A stretch of 64,000 nt of DNA from contig CAWCTC010000001.1 of NCBI GenBank assembly GCA_963798465.1, forward strand, positions 68,315 to 132,314. Reading direction: 5' to 3'. The DNA is from an uncultured bacterium (lineage in GTDB: Bacteria; Patescibacteriota; Minisyncoccia; Phycocordibacterales; GWA1-40-21). A program made the translations under genes and the position numbers. Positions 13,500 through 46,680 of this stretch are shown here, one piece after another (within the stretch, counting starts at the first letter, position 1; every line of letters begins with the position of its first letter). Under the pieces are notes generated by a model. It was not told the origin of the DNA, did no database searches, and was given only the letters and a program-made list of their open reading frames with translations.

Positions 13500-14708
13500 T
13501 TAGCTTATCGAACTCGTCAAAGAATAAATAGGTTTTATTACGGCTAACGCAAAAAATCCTACGGCAGTTCCTATGACTACCATAAGCACGGGCTCGATTA
13601 TATCCGACATGTTTTTTGTTTTTTGATCCACGGAATCTTCATAAAATGTCGCCACTTCCAAAAGCATGGCTGGAAGTCTTCCTGTTTCTTCTCCGACGAC
13701 CATCATTTCTCCGACAAATGGAGGGCATAATTTTGTGTTTTCTAAAAATACGCTTGAAATCGTTCCACCTTTTTCAACTTTGCTTTTTGCCGTAGCTAAA
13801 ATAGCCTTAAAATAATCATTTTGTATGACATCTCTTGTTATGGAAATCGATTCTTCATAAGCGACTCCAGAAGACAAAAGCGACGCTATCGTTCTCGTAA
13901 TTCTCGCGGAATTCGTTTCTTTTATCAGTTCGCCGACTACGGGAATCTTCAAAACTATGAAATCAAAAACATGCTTTCCTAGCTTTGAACGAAGAGTAAA
14001 ATATACGCCCAAATAAATAAGCAAGGCTCCGAGCAAAGTCAGCGGAATATTATTTTTCAAAAAGTCGCTCGTGCCGATCAGAACTTTGGTCATAAAGGGA
14101 AGCGGAACGTTCAGATTTGCAAGAGTGGAAGTGATTTGCGGAACGACAAATATCATCATGAGCACGCCGATAACTAGCATCACGGATAATATTACTCCAG
14201 GATATATCATTGCTCCTTTGACCTTTTCTTTTATCTTGTAGCTTCCTTCCATCTGGTTTGCGATAATTTTCAAAGATTCGGATAATTTTCCGGACTCTTC
14301 TCCTGCTTTTACCATCGAAACGAATAATTTTTCAAAAACATCCGGATATTCGGCGCAAGCTTCGCTGAGCGGCTTGCCTTTTCTTATTTCCAAACCCAAA
14401 TCTCCGATGATTCCTCTGAGTTTTTTATTCGTCACTTGATTTTCAAGAATATTCAAACCTTTGGCGAGAGGAAGCCCCGCGTTTATCATTCCGCCCAAAT
14501 TTCTAGCAAAAATTATTTTCTGCAGTTCGGGAACAGAATTAAAAAAAGGAAGGTCTATATCCCATTTTGATTTTATATTTTCAGATGCAGATATCAGAGT
14601 GTCGCCCTGTTCTTTCAACTCTTCATACAAAGCAAATTTATCGGTAGATTCTTTTATACCTTCATACTTTGTGCCATCTTTTTTAATAACCTTAATTTTA
14701 AATTTCAT
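13500..14708 (-). CDS. pilC: type IV pilus assembly platform protein PilC (GspF/T2SS-F family)
   Basis: 402 aa with duplicated T2SSF-type architecture, three TM regions and typical LPLAKGLNILENQ / TGRLPAMLLEVATFYE segments. Confidence 0.9.
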   Translation of the reverse strand: MKFKIKVIKKDGTKYEGIKESTDKFALYEELKEQGDTLISASENIKSKWDIDLPFFNSVPELQKIIFARNLGGMINAGLPLAKGLNILENQVTNKKLRGIIGDLGLEIRKGKPLSEACAEYPDVFEKLFVSMVKAGEESGKLSESLKIIANQMEGSYKIKEKVKGAMIYPGVILSVMLVIGVLMMIFVVPQITSTLANLNVPLPFMTKVLIGTSDFLKNNIPLTLLGALLIYLGVYFTLRSKLGKHVFDFIVLKIPVVGELIKETNSARITRTIASLLSSGVAYEESISITRDVIQNDYFKAILATAKSKVEKGGTISSVFLENTKLCPPFVGEMMVVGEETGRLPAMLLEVATFYEDSVDQKTKNMSDIIEPVLMVVIGTAVGFFALAVIKPIYSLTSSIS

Positions 14709-14978
14709 TTACCCGAGAAAATTTTTGCTAATGAAAAAGTTGTTTAGGACCTTTTTTATGTAATTTCTACCGTATTGTGTTTTCATATATTTTTCTCTAT
14801 TATACGCGTCTTTTGCTATTAATGTAAGCTTCATAATATATAAGTGCAAATGGGACTCTTTTCTTTGTTGAAGCAACTTTTTTGGCATTATGCAATATCA
14901 ATCTAGCTTTAATATCTTTTGTACAACCAGTATACAATTCTCCATTTTTTTACTTTGTATAATATATACATATTGCAT
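14709..14978 (-). pseudogene. GIY-YIG nuclease family gene, degraded paralogue of 16777-17046
   Basis: DNA is near-identical to 16777-17046 but has A7 instead of AAGAAAAA near 14944-14951 (-1) and AGCAAAAGAC instead of AGCAAAGAC (+1). This gives an early TGA after MQYVYIIQSKKMENCILVVQKILKLD. Confidence 0.75.
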
Positions 14979-15003
14979 AATGCATTAGCAAAAACTTTAA
15001 CGG
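14713..15003 (-). mobile_element. ~291-bp inverted-repeat-bounded GIY-YIG cassette, copy 1 (between pilB stop and pilC start)
   Basis: Ends are CCGAGAAAATTTTTGCTAAT (14713-14732) and ATTAGCAAAAACTTTAACGG (14984-15003), 16 of 19 positions complementary. It fills the whole pilB-pilC intergenic space. Confidence 0.55.
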
Positions 15004-15008
15004 GTGAA

Positions 15009-16776
15009 TTATTCCGTCACAACTCTCAAAACTTCCTCGATCGTCGTCATACCTGTAACACATTTGAATATCCCATCTTCAAGCATAGTGAGCATTCCTT
15101 CTTTTTTTGCTTGAACTTCTATTTCCTGCGAAGTCGAACCTTTCATGACGAGATCTCTTATCGCCGGAGTCATTTTTAATGTTTCATGAATTCCGATTCT
15201 TCCGGCATATCCGTCTGGCGCATCAATAGATGCTTTGGCTTTATAAAAATAAATATTTTCCCAATCGTCAGTTTTTGAAATCAGATTTTCATTCCTCAAC
15301 GTTTCCAAAACCCTATTCAAATCGACAATTTTTGCAAGAGAAGCCAATTCCGCTTTGGTCAAAAGATATTTTTCTTTTTCTTTGGTCAATTGTCTGATAA
15401 GCCTCTGAGCCAAAACGATATTTATCGTTGATACGAGAAGAAACGGCTCGATTTTCATATCCATAAGTCTTGGAATCGCTCCGGCGGCGGAATTTGTGTG
15501 CAAAGTCGAGAGCACCATGTGTCCGGTCAAAGCTGCATTCACGGCAAGAGAAGCGGTTTCATCATCTCTGATTTCTCCGACCATGATGATGTCAGGATCC
15601 TGCCTGACAAGCGAACGAAGTCCGTTTGCAAAACTGAATCCTATTTCCGGTTTTACCTGAGTCTGATTTATTCTTGCGACTTGATATTCAATCGGGTCTT
15701 CAATCGTTGCAATATTTACATCGGGAGTATTCAATACTTCCAAAATGGTATAAAGAGTGGTCGTCTTTCCGCTTCCGGTAGGTCCGGTTGTCAGAATCAT
15801 TCCATTCGCTTCTTTCATTGCATCGTGGATTCTTTCCAAATTTATTCCATGAAAACCCATGGATTCCAAAGTGTAAGCTCCGACATTTTCTCTCAGAAGA
15901 CGCATGACAGTTTTTTCTCCGAAATATGTCGGAATGATTGAAACTCTGAAAGAAACTTTTTCTCCATTGATGTCGATTTTGAATCTTCCGTCCTGAGGCA
16001 ATCTTTTTTCATCAAGCTTTAGGTTTGAAAGAACTTTTATCCTGGCAGTTATACTTTCTCCGGCATTTTTTGGAAGAATCATTGCATCATGCAAAAGCCC
16101 GTCGATTCTGTATCTGACAAGAATATCATTTTCCAGACACTCAATATGTATGTCCGAAGCATTCTGCAAAGCTGCGTGTTTCAAAAGAGTTTCTACGATG
16201 CGGATGACCGGAAGATCCTCCGCCATATTTTTCAAAGTTTCTTCGAGAGGTTCGCCTTTATTTCCAATTTCAAGATTTCCCGAGTCTTTCAGAGCTTGAA
16301 CATCTTTCTGTATCAATTCCCCGAACTCAGCTTTCAAACTTTTTTGATATTGGAGAAGCGCGCTTTTTATCGAAGCTGTGTCCGTCAGTCTTGGCAAGAA
16401 TTTTCAATCCGACTTTCTTTTTTATAAATTCTATTTCCGGCAAATCATTTATGTCAAGCATCGCGACTTCCAGAGAATCCGGATTTTTCTTGAAAGCTAC
16501 TATATTATTTTTTCTGGCAAGTGGTTCGGGAATTATCGAAAGCACGGGAAAATCGATTTTTTGATTTTTCAAATCGACAAAAGGAATTCCGGATACATAA
16601 GCCTGCGCTTTACGAAGATCATCGTCGGAAATTTTTCCCTGACTGACTAAAACTTTCTCGGGAGTATCTTTAAGCTTCCCATTTTTTATAAGACTTTCAA
16701 TATCATCATACTCAGTCTTCGTGACAAGACCTGTATCTATTAAAAAATCTTTAAGTTGTTTACTTTCTAGTGCCAT
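15009..16776 (-). pseudogene. pilB: type IV pilus assembly ATPase PilB (GspE family), one frameshift after the N-terminal domain
   Basis: ORF 16327-16776 (T2SSE N-domain) and ORF 15009-16397 (Walker A GPTGSGKTTT, IMVGEIRDDETA, TGHMVLSTLHTN) join as ...KKVGLKIL/PRLTDTASIK. One extra base near 16393-16400 breaks the frame. Confidence 0.9.
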
Positions 16777-17046
16777 TTATCCGAGAAAATTTTTGCTAAT
16801 AAAAAAGTTACTTAGGACCTTTTTGATATAATTTCTACCATATTGTGTTTTCATATATTTTTCTCTATTATACGCGTCTTTGCTATTTATGTAAGCTTCA
16901 TAGTATATAAGTGCAAATGGCGCGCTTTTTTTCGTCGATGTAACTTTTTTGGCATTATGCAATATTAATCTATTTTTTATATCCTTGGTACAACCTGTAT
17001 ATAATTCGCCATTTTTCTTACTTTGTAATACATATAGATATTGCAT
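16777..17046 (-). CDS. GIY-YIG nuclease family protein (UPF0213-like), 89 aa
   Basis: MQYLYVLQSKKNGELYTGCTKDIKNRLILHNAKK...YYEAY...NREKYMK. The stop TAA is immediately followed by the pilB ATG (TAAATG). Confidence 0.8.
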   Translation of the reverse strand: MQYLYVLQSKKNGELYTGCTKDIKNRLILHNAKKVTSTKKSAPFALIYYEAYINSKDAYNREKYMKTQYGRNYIKKVLSNFFISKNFLG

Positions 17047-17071
17047 AATGCGTTAGCAAAAACTTTAACGG
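16781..17071 (-). mobile_element. ~291-bp inverted-repeat-bounded GIY-YIG cassette, copy 2 (directly upstream of pilB)
   Basis: Same terminal inverted repeats as copy 1 (16781-16800 and 17052-17071). DNA-level repeat of 14713-15003. Confidence 0.55.
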
Positions 17072-17178
17072 ATTAATTTTCCTTATTCCTGATAATTATA
17101 TCAGAAAATAATTAAGTTCAACAGCAATTAACAGTTCACGAATTCAGAAGATATTCGGCAATGTAATTTGGCGAATTC

Positions 17179-17211
17179 AAAAGGCGGGTTTGCTTCGCAA
17201 ACCCGCCTTTT
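17179..17211 (-). terminator. terminator after the 905-aa surface protein gene
   Basis: AAAAGGCGGGTTTGC-TTC-GCAAACCCGCCTTTT. Confidence 0.7.
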
Positions 17212-17221
17212 GAATTTTCTT

Positions 17222-19939
17222 TTAGAATTCCGAGCTCGTTGAAGTTCCAATTTTTACAGTAGTTGTGCCTGTGCAAAATATCGAGCTTCCCACTACTTGG
17301 CCGGTAATAGTTTTTGTGCCTATCGTTGTATAAATTTTACTTACTGGATTGCCAGTTAAACCCGAAACATTCGTGCCACTCCATGTAATTGTTGACGTTC
17401 CGGCACTATATGGCATTGTCCAAGTCATCGCTTTATTTACATATATATTATTACTGCCGGATTGAAGAGGGATGCAAATTAATCCCGACTGCGGAATATT
17501 CACGGACGTTTGTGATAATTGGCCAGAATTATCGGAACATGGAATCACATATGTTGTGCTTTCAGACAAAGCACCAGTCGTAGTCAAAATTCCATCATTG
17601 ATTTCAGATGCAATCTGATCTCCGGATGATTGATCAACCACTTTGCAAGAATAGCTTGGATCAGTTGATGAAGACACCGGCTGGCAAGTGATGGATTGAG
17701 AAGTTGCGGAGCAAGTCGGACTTGAAAAATGACTTTGAGTGGTAGAAACTTTAACAGTTGTTGATGTTGAAACTGAATTGCCGGAATTTGAGCATGTAAG
17801 ATTGAAGGTTGTGTCGGAAGTTAACGGACCTGAAGAAATAGAATCTGATGTATAGGGTTGTTTTGGAACATTTGCTTCCGGCACGGAACAGTAATATGTA
17901 CAACTCAACGAATTTCCTCCTACACATGTAGCATTTACTGTACCACCAAGATTCGTGCAATCACTACTAGACAATGCAAGAAGAGCTGTTGATGCTAAGT
18001 ACATAAATTCGTTACACATATTTGTATTCGCATCCCAAGTCCCATTGGCAGCGACACAATCAGAAGCCGGGGTAGAACCAACAAATAAAACTCCATTTTT
18101 GGTTAATGTACATGAATCAGCTCCGGATGAATTCCAAGAAACAGTTGAACTGGCACCGGTCAAAACTGAAGTTGGGTTTGCACTTAAACTTAAATTAATT
18201 ACAGGCGATGAAACATTGAAAGGTATTGGACTTCCACTATTATCAATGGGCTGCTGCACGGTTACAGCGCATCCGTTTCCGCAAGATCCCGCGGCTGGAG
18301 ACTTTACATATAAATTGTGACTACCTGTATTGCTAGGTGCAATAAGATATGAAGGTGAAGTCGAAGTACTTATATAATTAGCGTTATCAATTCCAAGGGA
18401 AAGTTCTGTCACGCCTGAAACATTGCCTTGGGAAGCAACACACGATACATTTCCCGTACAAGAAAAAGATTCTGTTCCTGTAAAAGATGTATTGGCTTGA
18501 ATTTGATCTCCTGGATTATACGTAATTTTATCCAGATTTACACTGACATTTAAATTGTATGCGTATATGAAAAACGCGCCGACGCCATGCGCAACGAATA
18601 CTTTGTACTGATAATTATAAGTATCTGCTTTTACGCTTCCTGAAAAACCAAATATTGAGATTCCTAAAATAATAAATATTATGACGTTTATAACCGAATG
18701 ATTCTTTTTATAAATTAAAGCAAAAAGAATAATCAATATGATGAGTGCAACAATTATTATTGCGATTGTTTTTATATTGAATTGACCTGAAGAAAAAATG
18801 GAAAGAATTGATGACGAAGCTAAAACATTTTCCGGAGTAGTAATTTGATAATTTCTTGCATCAAGAACGACGCCGTTTGCGGAAAGAGTTACATTTGCTT
18901 TTGGATTGATGCAATCTTTTGCAATTGGAACTTGAATTGTTGTAAAAGAATTTGATAAAACACTTACTTGATTGCTGCATGATTCATTCTTGCTATCTAA
19001 AACAGAAATAGCGACAGTGGTTGAAGAAACATTTGCAAAAGTAAGAACTTGAATATTCGCCGTATCTCCGGCTTTGTAAAAAGTCTTGTCAAAAACAACA
19101 TTGTTGATTATTCCATACGGACCTGAAGAGGAAGTATTATAATTTAAACCGACTGTATTTGAAACGATTGAATTGTCTGCTGACGCAAGAGAAAAAGCCA
19201 CGTAATAATTTTGCGGAATTGAAGCTTTTGGAAGTTCCGCGGATATAGAGTTCGCACCCGGCTTTATTTCAATGCTTTCAGATGAACCGCCGGCCGTGCT
19301 GGCAATATTTCCAAACGATGTGTTTGCTCTGGTGACAAAATTCGGAACCAAATCTACACTGCCGGTATAGCTGCTATTTACCGTACAATTTGCAGTAATA
19401 GTTGATGTAGAATCGACAACTGAGGACGATGCCAATAATTCTGAATTCGCATAAAGCTCGCAAGAATTCGGAACTATTTCAACCGAACTTGCGGAACTTT
19501 TTGCAATATTAACTTTTCCCAAAGAACTTTGAGCGAGTATCAAACCGCTTTCATTCTCGCTTAAAATATATAAATTGTATGATCCAGCCGGTATTGAAGA
19601 AGGAACCGTATAATTTATTGTTTTATTTAACGTGGTGTTTTCTCCCAGCGAGAGAACCTCATCGTAAACTTTTTCATCGACGAGTTGATTTGATGAAACG
19701 TCCAGCAATTCAGCTGCATATTTTATCTGCGGTTGAGCTCCGATCCTGTTTGAGATGTCAAAAGATATTGAAAAATCTCTGTCATTTTGAGAAATGATTT
19801 TTGCATTATAAATATTTACTGTCGCGACAAGCACTCCTCCCGAAACAGGAGCACCGGCACTCGTTTGCGCACTGGCAATTCCGCAAAAGGCGGCTCCGAG
19901 CGCAAATACTGAAAGGAGAGATATAAATATTTTTTTCAT
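17222..19939 (-). CDS. large surface protein (905 aa): signal peptide, central double TM segment, Ser/Thr/Asn-rich beta domains, conserved C-terminal module
   Basis: MKKIFISLLSVFALGAAFCGIASAQ signal; TM pair IAIIIVALIILIILFALIY / VIIFIILGISIFGF. The last ~85 aa are homologous to the C-terminus of the neighbouring 909-aa protein. Confidence 0.7.
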   Translation of the reverse strand: MKKIFISLLSVFALGAAFCGIASAQTSAGAPVSGGVLVATVNIYNAKIISQNDRDFSISFDISNRIGAQPQIKYAAELLDVSSNQLVDEKVYDEVLSLGENTTLNKTINYTVPSSIPAGSYNLYILSENESGLILAQSSLGKVNIAKSSASSVEIVPNSCELYANSELLASSSVVDSTSTITANCTVNSSYTGSVDLVPNFVTRANTSFGNIASTAGGSSESIEIKPGANSISAELPKASIPQNYYVAFSLASADNSIVSNTVGLNYNTSSSGPYGIINNVVFDKTFYKAGDTANIQVLTFANVSSTTVAISVLDSKNESCSNQVSVLSNSFTTIQVPIAKDCINPKANVTLSANGVVLDARNYQITTPENVLASSSILSIFSSGQFNIKTIAIIIVALIILIILFALIYKKNHSVINVIIFIILGISIFGFSGSVKADTYNYQYKVFVAHGVGAFFIYAYNLNVSVNLDKITYNPGDQIQANTSFTGTESFSCTGNVSCVASQGNVSGVTELSLGIDNANYISTSTSPSYLIAPSNTGSHNLYVKSPAAGSCGNGCAVTVQQPIDNSGSPIPFNVSSPVINLSLSANPTSVLTGASSTVSWNSSGADSCTLTKNGVLFVGSTPASDCVAANGTWDANTNMCNEFMYLASTALLALSSSDCTNLGGTVNATCVGGNSLSCTYYCSVPEANVPKQPYTSDSISSGPLTSDTTFNLTCSNSGNSVSTSTTVKVSTTQSHFSSPTCSATSQSITCQPVSSSTDPSYSCKVVDQSSGDQIASEINDGILTTTGALSESTTYVIPCSDNSGQLSQTSVNIPQSGLICIPLQSGSNNIYVNKAMTWTMPYSAGTSTITWSGTNVSGLTGNPVSKIYTTIGTKTITGQVVGSSIFCTGTTTVKIGTSTSSEF

Positions 19940-25693: not shown

Positions 25694-25955
25694 ACTACTA
25701 CCGGCTAAAAGCCGGTAGTTTTGGATAAGACTAAAGTCCGATATTAAATACAAATGCAGACCCATACTCGTGTGTCATTCCCGCGAAGGCGGGAATCCAG
25801 AATTAATAGTGTCGCAGTTATAGGACGGTTGTGCGAGTGACTTCGCTAAGTCAAACCTAGATTCCCGTATTCACGGGAATGACAAATGTCATCCAAAACT
25901 AATCTTAAAAGGACTGCCTGAAGGCGGGAGTTTTGCTACCAAAGGTGGATAATAA
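25694..25955 (+). repeat. ~250-260-bp composite repeat, copy A (immediately after tig stop)
   Basis: Near-identical to 46413-46672. It contains hairpin CTACCGG..CCGGTAG, a 110-bp unit bounded by GTCATTCCCGCGAAGGCGGGAATC and GATTCCCGTATTCACGGGAATGAC (25774-25883), and the 50-nt motif (25809-25856). Confidence 0.9.
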
Positions 25956-25968
25956 AAACCGGGGAAAT

Positions 25969-46412: not shown

Positions 46413-46672
46413 TAAAAATAAACTACTACCGGTAGTTTTGGATAAGACTAAAGTCCGATATTAAATACAAATGCAGACCCATACTCGTGTGTCATTCCCG
46501 CGAAGGCGGGAATCCAGAATTAATAGTGTCGCACTTATATAGGACGATTGTGCGAGTGACTTCGCTAAGTCAAACCTAGATTCCCGTATTCACGGGAATG
46601 ACAAATGTCATCCAAAACTAATCTTAAAAGGACTGCCTGAAGGCGGGAGTTTTGCTCCCAAAGATAGATAAT
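46413..46672 (+). repeat. ~250-260-bp composite repeat, copy B (immediately after PBP1A stop)
   Basis: Near-identical to 25694-25955. Differences I see are an 8-nt loop deletion in the first hairpin, a 2-nt insertion plus 2 substitutions in the central motif, and divergence in the last ~25 nt. Confidence 0.9.
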
Positions 46673-46680
46673 TAAAAAAA

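Follow-up and report, generated by a model that had tools for sequence, protein, structure and literature searches.

We analyzed a 64,000-nt stretch of contig CAWCTC010000001.1 from an uncultured member of the Patescibacteria (the window), in which all of the relevant genes lie on the minus strand. Two cassettes of about 300 bp, one directly upstream of pilB (copy B) and the other directly upstream of pilC (copy A), almost certainly belong to a family of mobile elements that are bounded by inverted repeats and accompanied by miniature derivatives. The only open reading frame (ORF) of the cassette encodes a GIY-YIG nuclease; no DDE, HUH, serine or tyrosine transposase is encoded. We consider it reasonably probable that the two blocks are very small selfish mobile elements of Patescibacteria whose own nuclease would be the mobilizing enzyme, acting on a single-stranded substrate. 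Taken together, the data point to a kind of transposon without a formal description.

A preliminary description of this DNA reported two near-identical blocks of about 291 bp, each with a single 89-codon GIY-YIG-type ORF and with imperfect terminal inverted repeats matching at 16 of 19 positions. The two cassettes, the ORF and the repeats were borne out, whereas near-identity was not: when copy B was compared with the window by BLASTN, copy A was 88.9% identical over 296 nt. The 5′ arm (CCGTTAAAGTTTTTGCTAA) and the 3′ arm (TTAGCAAAAATTTTCTCGG) form 16 of 19 possible Watson-Crick pairs plus one G:T pair, and the 3′ arm of copy B also encodes the final 11 codons and the stop codon of the nuclease. 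Copy B is intact. As had been reported, copy A is decayed, having, relative to copy B, lost 1 nt near 14950 and gained 1 nt near 14812, and its ORF stops after 26 codons. The coordinates also agree with the earlier account in that one copy fills the pilB-pilC spacer and the other directly precedes pilB. In both copies the right end reads ...CTCGG[A/G]TAAATG, in which the ATG is the start codon of pilB (16776) or pilC (14708). A BLASTN search with copy B did not identify a third copy in the window. Solo REP-like arms were also absent from the window, as each 19-mer occurred at only four places with up to 3 mismatches (0.04–0.13 expected by chance).

Comparison with related genomes indicated that the cassettes move. 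An identical 89-amino acid protein is encoded on the JGI contigs L001 and L002, immediately before a pilin gene. Over 303 nt, copy B and the corresponding segment of L001 (5591–5893) share 99.67% identity, whereas the PilB protein of the L001 organism is only about 54% identical to that of the window and the remainder of the locus does not align. In contrast, contig L083, which comes from the same sample as L001, JGI 3300041809, is 94.1–94.6% identical to the window across pilB, pilC and 6 kb beyond, yet it has no cassette at the pilB site. At this position L083 reads ...TATCAGGAATCGTAAAAAAATGGCACTAG, whereas the filled site in the window reads ...TATCAGGAATAAGGAAAAT[TAATCCG...CTCGGATAA]ATGGCACTAG. 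The pilB-pilC spacer of L083 contains a 136-bp element with both arms and no ORF, and a 136-bp miniature is also present there in L116 and L160. The same spacer is a plain 14 nt in L088 (PilC 79% identical) and contains a 116-nt element in L089 (PilC 75% identical), the arms of which have diverged but are still complementary. Orthologous empty sites were found in L083, L088 and L089, one of which forms the single close empty/filled pair. An empty junction reads ...AAAAAAATGGCAC. Because copies A and B differ by 11%, whereas copy B matches a copy from another species at 99.7%, the two cassettes of the window are independent arrivals, copy B being recent and copy A older. The pilC site was filled more than once or has undergone turnover. 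Elsewhere, miniatures that are 92–94% identical to one another occupy different genes, and in L012 (3588–4545) a single gene is preceded by a head-to-tail stack of five elements, of which two are miniatures, two are decayed copies and one carries an intact nuclease gene, with the junctions CGGGTGA|ACCCG and GGGTAA|ACCC. The arm pattern had no match in viral contigs, providing no indication of phage carriage. The only contig found with the exact PilC of the window breaks off inside copy A.

A scan for relatives of the nuclease, with one genome per species and the labels of metagenome-assembled genomes (MAGs) as deposited, returned at least 553 relatives. The best 80 of these were nearly all from MAGs of Patescibacteria (Paceibacterota, Taylorbacteria and others), some with two loci. 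In 54 of the 80 loci, with protein identities of 46–100%, we found a shared plan in which about 6 nt separate one arm from the start codon of the nuclease ORF, the complement of this arm overlaps the end of that ORF, and the ATG of the next gene follows the 3′ arm within a few bases. The arms differ between subfamilies but change together, such that CCCTCCTAACTTTTTGGAT occurs with ATCCAAAAAGTTAGGAGGG and ACCCGCCAAAATTTT with AAAATTTAGGCGGGT; the repeats are therefore conserved and covarying among relatives, a check that the preliminary description had proposed. A profile search of 1.84 billion representative proteins identified 2,617 clusters at E≤1e-10, nearly all of 85–130 amino acids, counted by protein alone.

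We also searched metagenome contigs with an exact 22-nt pattern for the 3′ arm of the subfamily in the window (ATTRGYAAAAATTTTCTCGGRT). This search returned 99 stretches, which were reduced to 88 non-redundant insertions after the 5′ arm was located. Thus, both the further copies and the empty sites that had been suggested as a check exist. The 88 insertions comprise 21 full-length copies (291–293 bp), 52 miniatures (126–145 bp, mostly 133–136 bp) and 15 intermediates (156–229 bp), some of which retain remnants of the ORF. Miniatures keep about 40 conserved bases at each end around a variable center, frequently with the promoter-like sequence TGTGATATAAT. The earlier view of a minimal cassette carrying only a GIY-YIG gene therefore describes the full-length copies, whereas most family members are gene-less and about 134 bp long. 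Miniatures of 70–110 bp with arms of other subfamilies were observed in L029, L045, L050, L053, L061 and L068. Another inverted-repeat family of 100–124 bp (ATCCCGTTAGAGGT...ACCTCTAACGGGAT) occurs in the same genomes (L004, L014, L031, L044 and L052), and its ends resemble the CCCGTTAAAG arm.

The 88 junctions revealed precise placement with respect to genes. Reading rightward from GGRT, the next five positions hold A in 84, A in 86, A in 88, T in 77 and G in 64 of the 88 insertions, so that an ATG begins 2 nt past GGRT at 64 sites (...CGGRTAAATG) and within 10 nt at 79. This ATG opens a long ORF at 73 sites (median 308 codons), and the ATGs are considered true start codons because in the downstream proteins the Pfam domains start at residues 1–6. 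The preliminary description had correctly noted that a TAA is fused to the host ATG but had taken the TAA to be flanking host sequence. Since AAA follows GGRT in 84–88 of the 88 independent copies, the TAA belongs to the element, and the terminal repeat includes this stop codon together with the A, and usually also the T, of the host ATG. The sequence TT[C/A]AC is conserved to the left of CCG. In 31 of 49 operon sites the stop codon of the upstream gene lies 0–5 nt from the left arm, and it is often made by the terminus itself (TAAC, TAGC or TGAAC). Orientation is essentially fixed, with the 3′ arm toward the ATG. In addition, 25 of the 88 sites have a −10-like hexamer that matches TATAAT at 5 or more of 6 positions (13 are perfect) and stops exactly 4 nt short of CCG, compared with no more than 6 sites for any other offset; this phasing may reflect target choice, a part of the element or the loss of a native leader.

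Downstream genes have diverse housekeeping functions and include those for PheS, MurG, Rpe, SecA, ribosomal proteins, ABC transporters and tRNA synthetases. A specific tie to type IV pilus genes was rejected as a rule, although pilB and pilC do recur as hosts. Among the 28 long ORFs of the window, a Shine-Dalgarno (SD)-like motif was present in only 2, upstream regions were A-rich, and TATAAT boxes were commonly found 8–14 nt before the ATG, which suggests that leaders are very short or absent in this organism. A role of the 3′ arm as an SD sequence is plausible in other subfamilies (AGGAGG(N4-8)ATG) but was rejected here, where the arm reads CTCGGRT. Placement is best explained, we think with somewhat better than even odds of being right, by a target preference for A/T-rich ...AAT|G junctions combined with selection against insertions that harm genes. 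Such junctions would be common currency in a genome with almost no SD sites and very short A-rich leaders. Several more distant loci (L051, L054, L057, L064 and L077; about 50–55% identity) are associated with tRNA genes, in that the nuclease ORF ends within the 5′ end of the tRNA and uses its TAG (positions 8–10) as stop codon. In L072, L075, L076 and L080 the cassette directly follows a tRNA 3′ end, and in two of these, L075 and L076, the 5′ arm overlaps the acceptor end. L081 has GGCGGGTG as its 3′ arm, but aragorn places a tRNA about 70 nt farther downstream.

The arms had been described as inverted-repeat ends. This is correct but incomplete, as the arms pair with each other instead of serving solely as two sites for protein binding. 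In the 52 miniatures, 97% pairing was seen along a 24-pair stem made up of 19 terminal pairs and, beyond a bulge, 5 more, and sliding the register reduced pairing to 30–57%. Double changes at seven pairs gave 31 cells versus 5.3 ± 2.1 in shuffled data, and none of 500 shuffles was as high, with the relatedness of the 52 miniatures uncorrected. Ends that merely bind one protein should be conserved, whereas the changes here are compensatory, which argues for an intramolecular stem or for copying of one arm from the other. A full-length copy folded as DNA had a z-score of −5.0 and a miniature folded as RNA one of −6.5, and in both folds the arms formed the closing stem. A second, internal stem pairs the region of the nuclease start codon with codons about 28–32; in copy A it joins 14972–14983 to 14885–14896. 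It is maintained as 12 of 12 bp, with compensatory changes, in nearly all relatives of at least 56% identity, and the compensation links the untranslated leader to a coding change from Asn-Ala to Asn-Ser. This internal stem probably limits translation of the nuclease.

The nuclease matched PF01541 over residues 2–71 with 53.1 bits (cut-off 22.6; E=4e-14). Residues Y5, Y16, R26, H30 and E62 are invariant or nearly so in 42 relatives. The protein is a single GIY-YIG domain of 89 amino acids, and most relatives have 84–130. Of 21 distinct full-length copies, 17 are intact and 4 are broken. Among the intact copies the median ratio of nonsynonymous to synonymous substitutions (dN/dS) is 0.10 at a dS of about 1; this purifying selection argues that the nuclease is functional. 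The arms are almost invariant and far more conserved than silent sites. A match to the group I intron endonuclease family TIGR01453 (21.2 bits) fell short of the cut-off of 56, and the protein, whose last residue is 89, has no DNA-binding domain. We recovered gonococcal SsnA (94 amino acids; L192, 401–682), with five published SRM motifs around its gene, and an S. meliloti Ssn homologue that is 57% identical to SsnA. The window protein shares 40% identity with the S. meliloti protein and 31% with SsnA, which scored 41 and 40 bits against our family profile. The corresponding values for the UPF0213 structures 1ZG2 and 1YWL were 32% and 31% identity and 32 and 23 bits. By sequence, the window protein lies between two known groups of small GIY-YIG proteins, and the profile scores, used as a proxy for a CDD assignment and suggestive only, lean to Ssn (cd10448) over UPF0213 (cd10456).

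The preliminary description had found no described class to which the cassette could be assigned, yet the Ssn nucleases provide a closest described relative. These enzymes cleave single-stranded DNA exclusively, a few bases 5′ of a cognate hairpin, even if that hairpin is put together from two strands; their genes usually lie between their own hairpins in a repeat-gene-repeat layout termed IS-like, for which mobility was not shown (Chenal et al. 2025, PMC11893778). As in Ssn systems, the enzyme here is a single-domain GIY-YIG protein of about 90 amino acids with similar catalytic spacing (Y5/Y16/E62, versus Y6/Y17/E64 in SsnA), and inverted-repeat DNA of its own, co-evolving with the protein, brackets the gene. 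The two ends of the element, ATTC(A)CCC...GGG(T)GAAT, also resemble the dRS3 core, ATTCCC...GGGAAT. In contrast to the self-contained hairpins that flank ssn genes, the flanks here are halves of one long-range stem with the gene in its loop. Mobility, miniatures and start-codon-precise placement are not reported for Ssn, and the hosts here are Patescibacteria.

In our model the autonomous form is about 293 bp and consists of the left terminus ATT[C/A]ACCCG with the 5′ arm, 6 nt, the 89-codon ORF and the end ...CGGRTAAAT. Internal deletion has given rise to the abundant gene-less miniatures of about 134 bp, which keep about 40 nt of each end. The downstream ATG takes its A, and in most cases its T as well, from the right terminus, while the left terminus abuts or overlaps the upstream stop codon or −10 box. 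With termini so positioned, the element replaces a short spacer and destroys neither gene. The downstream gene can then be read by stop-start coupling or from promoter-like boxes within the element. The two arms pair into a stem closing the whole element, and the nuclease, as Ssn enzymes do, would recognize this stem in single-stranded DNA at replication forks or in incoming transforming DNA. It would nick the stem at its base, and repair or replication by the host would finish copying into A/T-rich ...AAT|G junctions. A circle or hairpin junction would read ...GGRTAAAT|ATTNACCCG.... That the nuclease recognizes the arm stem in single-stranded DNA and thereby starts movement is put forward tentatively, because of the analogy with Ssn and the covariation of the arms with the protein.

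Several findings weigh against this interpretation. GIY-YIG nucleases are not known to form covalent intermediates or to join strands, and the chemistry of integration is therefore missing from the model. A target-site duplication, which was to be defined by aligning copies, was not definable with AT, AAT or TNA models across the 88 junctions, the one empty/filled pair and the stacked arrays; any duplication is at most AT, and a duplicated AT would leave the same sequence as a terminus that itself ends in AT. Conservation of the 3′ arm is partly a matter of ascertainment, since the metagenome set was collected by an exact match to that arm. The arms of L013 and L014 have traded places around the ORF (5′ CCCGAGAAAATTTTT and 3′ AAAAACTTTAACGGG), whereas the ORF and the ATG junction are oriented as usual. 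The window protein fails the published inclusion rule for Ssn, a BLASTP match to Neisseria SsnA with E<1e-10 and at least 75% query coverage (PMC11893778), as it matched SsnA with 31% identity over 64 of 94 residues (38.9 bits; E=8e-10 as a single comparison). The published SRM motif was found within 500 bp of none of 82 loci. Finally, mismatches in the arm stem of the miniatures are more often G:T (20) than A:C (8; p=0.036), and one G:T pair is fixed. This mild bias on the sense strand hints that the stem may matter as RNA instead of, or besides, as DNA; it was not significant in a broad set (32 versus 22).

An RNA-level role would be compatible with our model, for example processing by RNase III that restores a short leader, by analogy with the Correia elements (PMC2649163). 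Taken further, it leads to the alternative that the cassette is an expression module useful to the host, in which the arm stem acts in mRNA as an RNase III site or as start-proximal structure with promoters, the nuclease provides Ssn-like restriction of incoming single-stranded DNA, and spread occurs by transformation and recombination. The G:T bias and the fixed G:T pair fit this alternative, as do the promoter-like boxes in the ORF and miniatures, the phase-locked −10-like hexamers, the near absence of SD sites with very short leaders, the strong purifying selection on the ORF, the canonical NTS hairpins within the window and the precedent of Correia elements for promoters and RNase III sites (PMC2649163). 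The cassette is nonetheless patchy between genomes that are 94% identical, near-identical DNA occurs across distant genomes, copies are decayed, broken or stacked in arrays, and the downstream housekeeping genes are unrelated and share no regulation. We therefore regard such a module as compatible with our model as a second layer and as unlikely by itself, as it leaves movement to new sites unexplained.

The GIY-YIG domain is a classical homing-endonuclease fold, and a free-standing homing endonuclease such as seg or mob of phage T4 would break the allele without the gene, with repair then copying the gene through flank homology. The weak TIGR01453 match would agree with homing, and the occurrence of a full-length copy upstream of pilC in the window and a miniature there in the 94%-identical L083 fits arm-mediated conversion between occupied alleles. 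Even so, the protein lacks a DNA-binding domain at 89 amino acids and scored 21 against the TIGR01453 cut-off of 56, while the 88 sites are unrelated, with flanks that share no homology beyond A/T-rich ...AATG. Moreover, homing neither needs nor yields inverted-repeat termini, miniatures or head-to-tail stacks, and we judge it slightly less likely than the expression module. Like free-standing GIY-YIG homing genes (T4 seg and relatives of I-TevI), the elements lie between conserved genes and spread horizontally. Homing genes differ in that they carry a DNA-binding domain, have one cognate site and spread by flank homology, whereas the elements here have no such domain, many unrelated sites, terminal repeats and miniatures.

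Less likely again is that an unlinked conventional transposase recognizes the arms and the GIY-YIG gene is a passenger or addiction gene. Such an enzyme would supply the strand joining that GIY-YIG chemistry alone leaves unexplained, and miniatures outnumber gene-carrying copies, as do miniature inverted-repeat transposable elements mobilized in trans. This explanation is difficult to reconcile with arms that change with the protein subfamily across relatives of 46–100% protein identity, with the GIY-YIG ORF being the sole cargo of every full-length copy and under purifying selection, and with compensatory arm changes, which are not expected for two independent protein-binding ends; nor was a transposase seen in the neighborhoods with listed Pfam-annotated gene calls. 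A vertically inherited UPF0213-type gene that was duplicated locally, as two copies 2 kb apart in one operon and the distant similarity to 1ZG2 and 1YWL might suggest, is refuted by the 99.7% match of copy B to a copy in another species versus 88.9% to copy A, by a closest relative that has no copy B and a miniature at the copy A site, and by 88 unrelated sites elsewhere.

The mobile-element interpretation invites comparison with other small elements. Like IS200/IS605 and REP/RAYT elements, which are handled as single-stranded DNA through hairpins, those described here are small and insert in one orientation beside a short motif, and their gene-less derivatives cluster or stack. The former insert without target duplication, and any duplication here is at most AT. 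The IS200/IS605 and REP/RAYT systems differ in having an HUH (Y1) transposase, covalent intermediates and a subterminal hairpin at each end, whereas the elements here lack an HUH gene, have GIY-YIG as sole enzyme and have two ends that pair mutually. Correia elements (CREE or nemis) of Neisseria are gene-less, inverted-repeat-bounded units of 100–155 bp that lie beside genes and have no known transposase; they create promoters, and RNA stems of their repeats are bound or cut by RNase III (PMC2649163). Correia elements duplicate TA, insert in either orientation and have no known autonomous partner, whereas for the elements described here a coding partner exists, orientation is fixed and the ATG junction is exact. 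GIY-YIG genes also occur within non-intron insertions in rRNA genes of the candidate phyla radiation (PMC11270868), and these insertions may be related to the elements described here. Full-text literature searches turned up neither an account of such elements in Patescibacteria nor one of bacterial transposons with GIY-YIG as the only enzyme.

The features of the two loci are listed in Table 1.

Table 1. Features of the pilB and pilC loci in the window, with positions numbered from the first nucleotide of the 64,000-nt stretch.
Feature	Positions	Strand	Remarks
Copy B, intact full-length element (about 293–302 bp)	16777–17078	−	Between pilB promoter/leader and pilB ATG
Copy A, decayed full-length element	14709–15010	−	Occupies entire pilB-pilC spacer
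Copy B, 89-codon single-domain GIY-YIG nuclease ORF	16777–17046	−	PF01541 match
Copy B, 5′ arm CCGTTAAAGTTTTTGCTAA	17053–17071	−	Conserved terminus reaches about 17078 (AATTAAT)
Copy B, 3′ arm TTAGCAAAAATTTTCTCGG	16781–16799	−	Followed by ATAAATG (TAA, nuclease stop; ATG, pilB start)
Copy A, 5′ arm CCGTTAAAGTTTTTGCTAA	14985–15003	−	Intact
Copy A, 3′ arm TTAGCAAAAATTTTCTCGG	14713–14731	−	Intact
Copy B, internal stem, 5′ half GCATTATGCAAT	17040–17051	−	Includes nuclease start codon; pairs with 16952–16963
Copy B, internal stem, 3′ half ATTGCATAATGC	16952–16963	−	Codons about 28–32; present in minimum-free-energy fold
Copy B, outward-facing promoter-like site in ORF, CTTACA-17-TATAAT	16867–16895	−	Consensus scan only; putative function
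Copy A, counterpart of promoter-like site	14799–14828	−	Consensus scan
pilB (T2SSE ATPase; Pfam T2SSE/MshEN)	15009–16776	−	Directly downstream of copy B
pilC (Pfam T2SSF)	13500–14708	−	Directly downstream of copy A
pilB promoter, −10 box GATATAAT	17095–17102	−	Kept in relatives without the element; copy B lies downstream of box
Strong bidirectional terminator	17174–17216		Between surface protein gene and pilB promoter
Gene for 905-amino acid surface protein	17222–19939	−	First in gene order, followed by terminator

The pilB gene of the window is broken into two ORFs (16327–16776 and 15009–16397) by one extra base near 16393–16404 (AAAATT[C]TTGCC, with the intact 588-amino acid pilB of L083 as reference), which is consistent with either a pseudogene or an assembly error. 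No known RNA families were detected in the window at Rfam gathering thresholds. The window also contains six canonical Neisseria-type NTS/SRM hairpins (TGTCATTCCCGYG...CGGGAATC), arranged as three inverted pairs at 25773–25884, 28740–28812 and 46490–46603. The published SRM pattern matched five of these, and the sixth, at 28789–28812, was identified only by a looser search. Around these hairpins, 25712–25958 and 46429–46677 form repeats of about 250 bp that are 96–99% identical. Since no GIY-YIG gene adjoins the hairpins, a cognate Ssn, if there is one, would be encoded elsewhere in the genome. A tandem array of 42-nt units, the central copies of which are about 97% identical, lies within a coding region at 31170–31493.

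Still more tentatively than the nuclease mechanism itself, we suggest that these elements constitute a new class of transposable element. Its sole enzyme would be a GIY-YIG nuclease of about 90 amino acids acting on the stem of its own ends in single-stranded DNA, with oriented insertion at stop/start junctions that donates a stop codon and the AT of the ATG, miniatures across the Patescibacteria, and Ssn/NTS systems as domesticated or collapsed descendants. If a 90-residue GIY-YIG nuclease does mobilize DNA, an enzyme class would be added to the short list of those that drive prokaryotic transposition, and the recently discovered Ssn nucleases would gain an evolutionary origin and a natural function. 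Sets of covarying nucleases and arms could yield programmable single-strand DNA cutters. The elements are an unusually clean example of a parasite that avoids harm, as they fill the space between stop codon and ATG and rebuild the ATG, while a left terminus reading TAA, TAG or TGA doubles as the stop codon of the upstream gene. They are common in the tiny, dense genomes of Patescibacteria, where they probably break metagenome assemblies and probably alter the promoters, leaders and operon structure of housekeeping genes.

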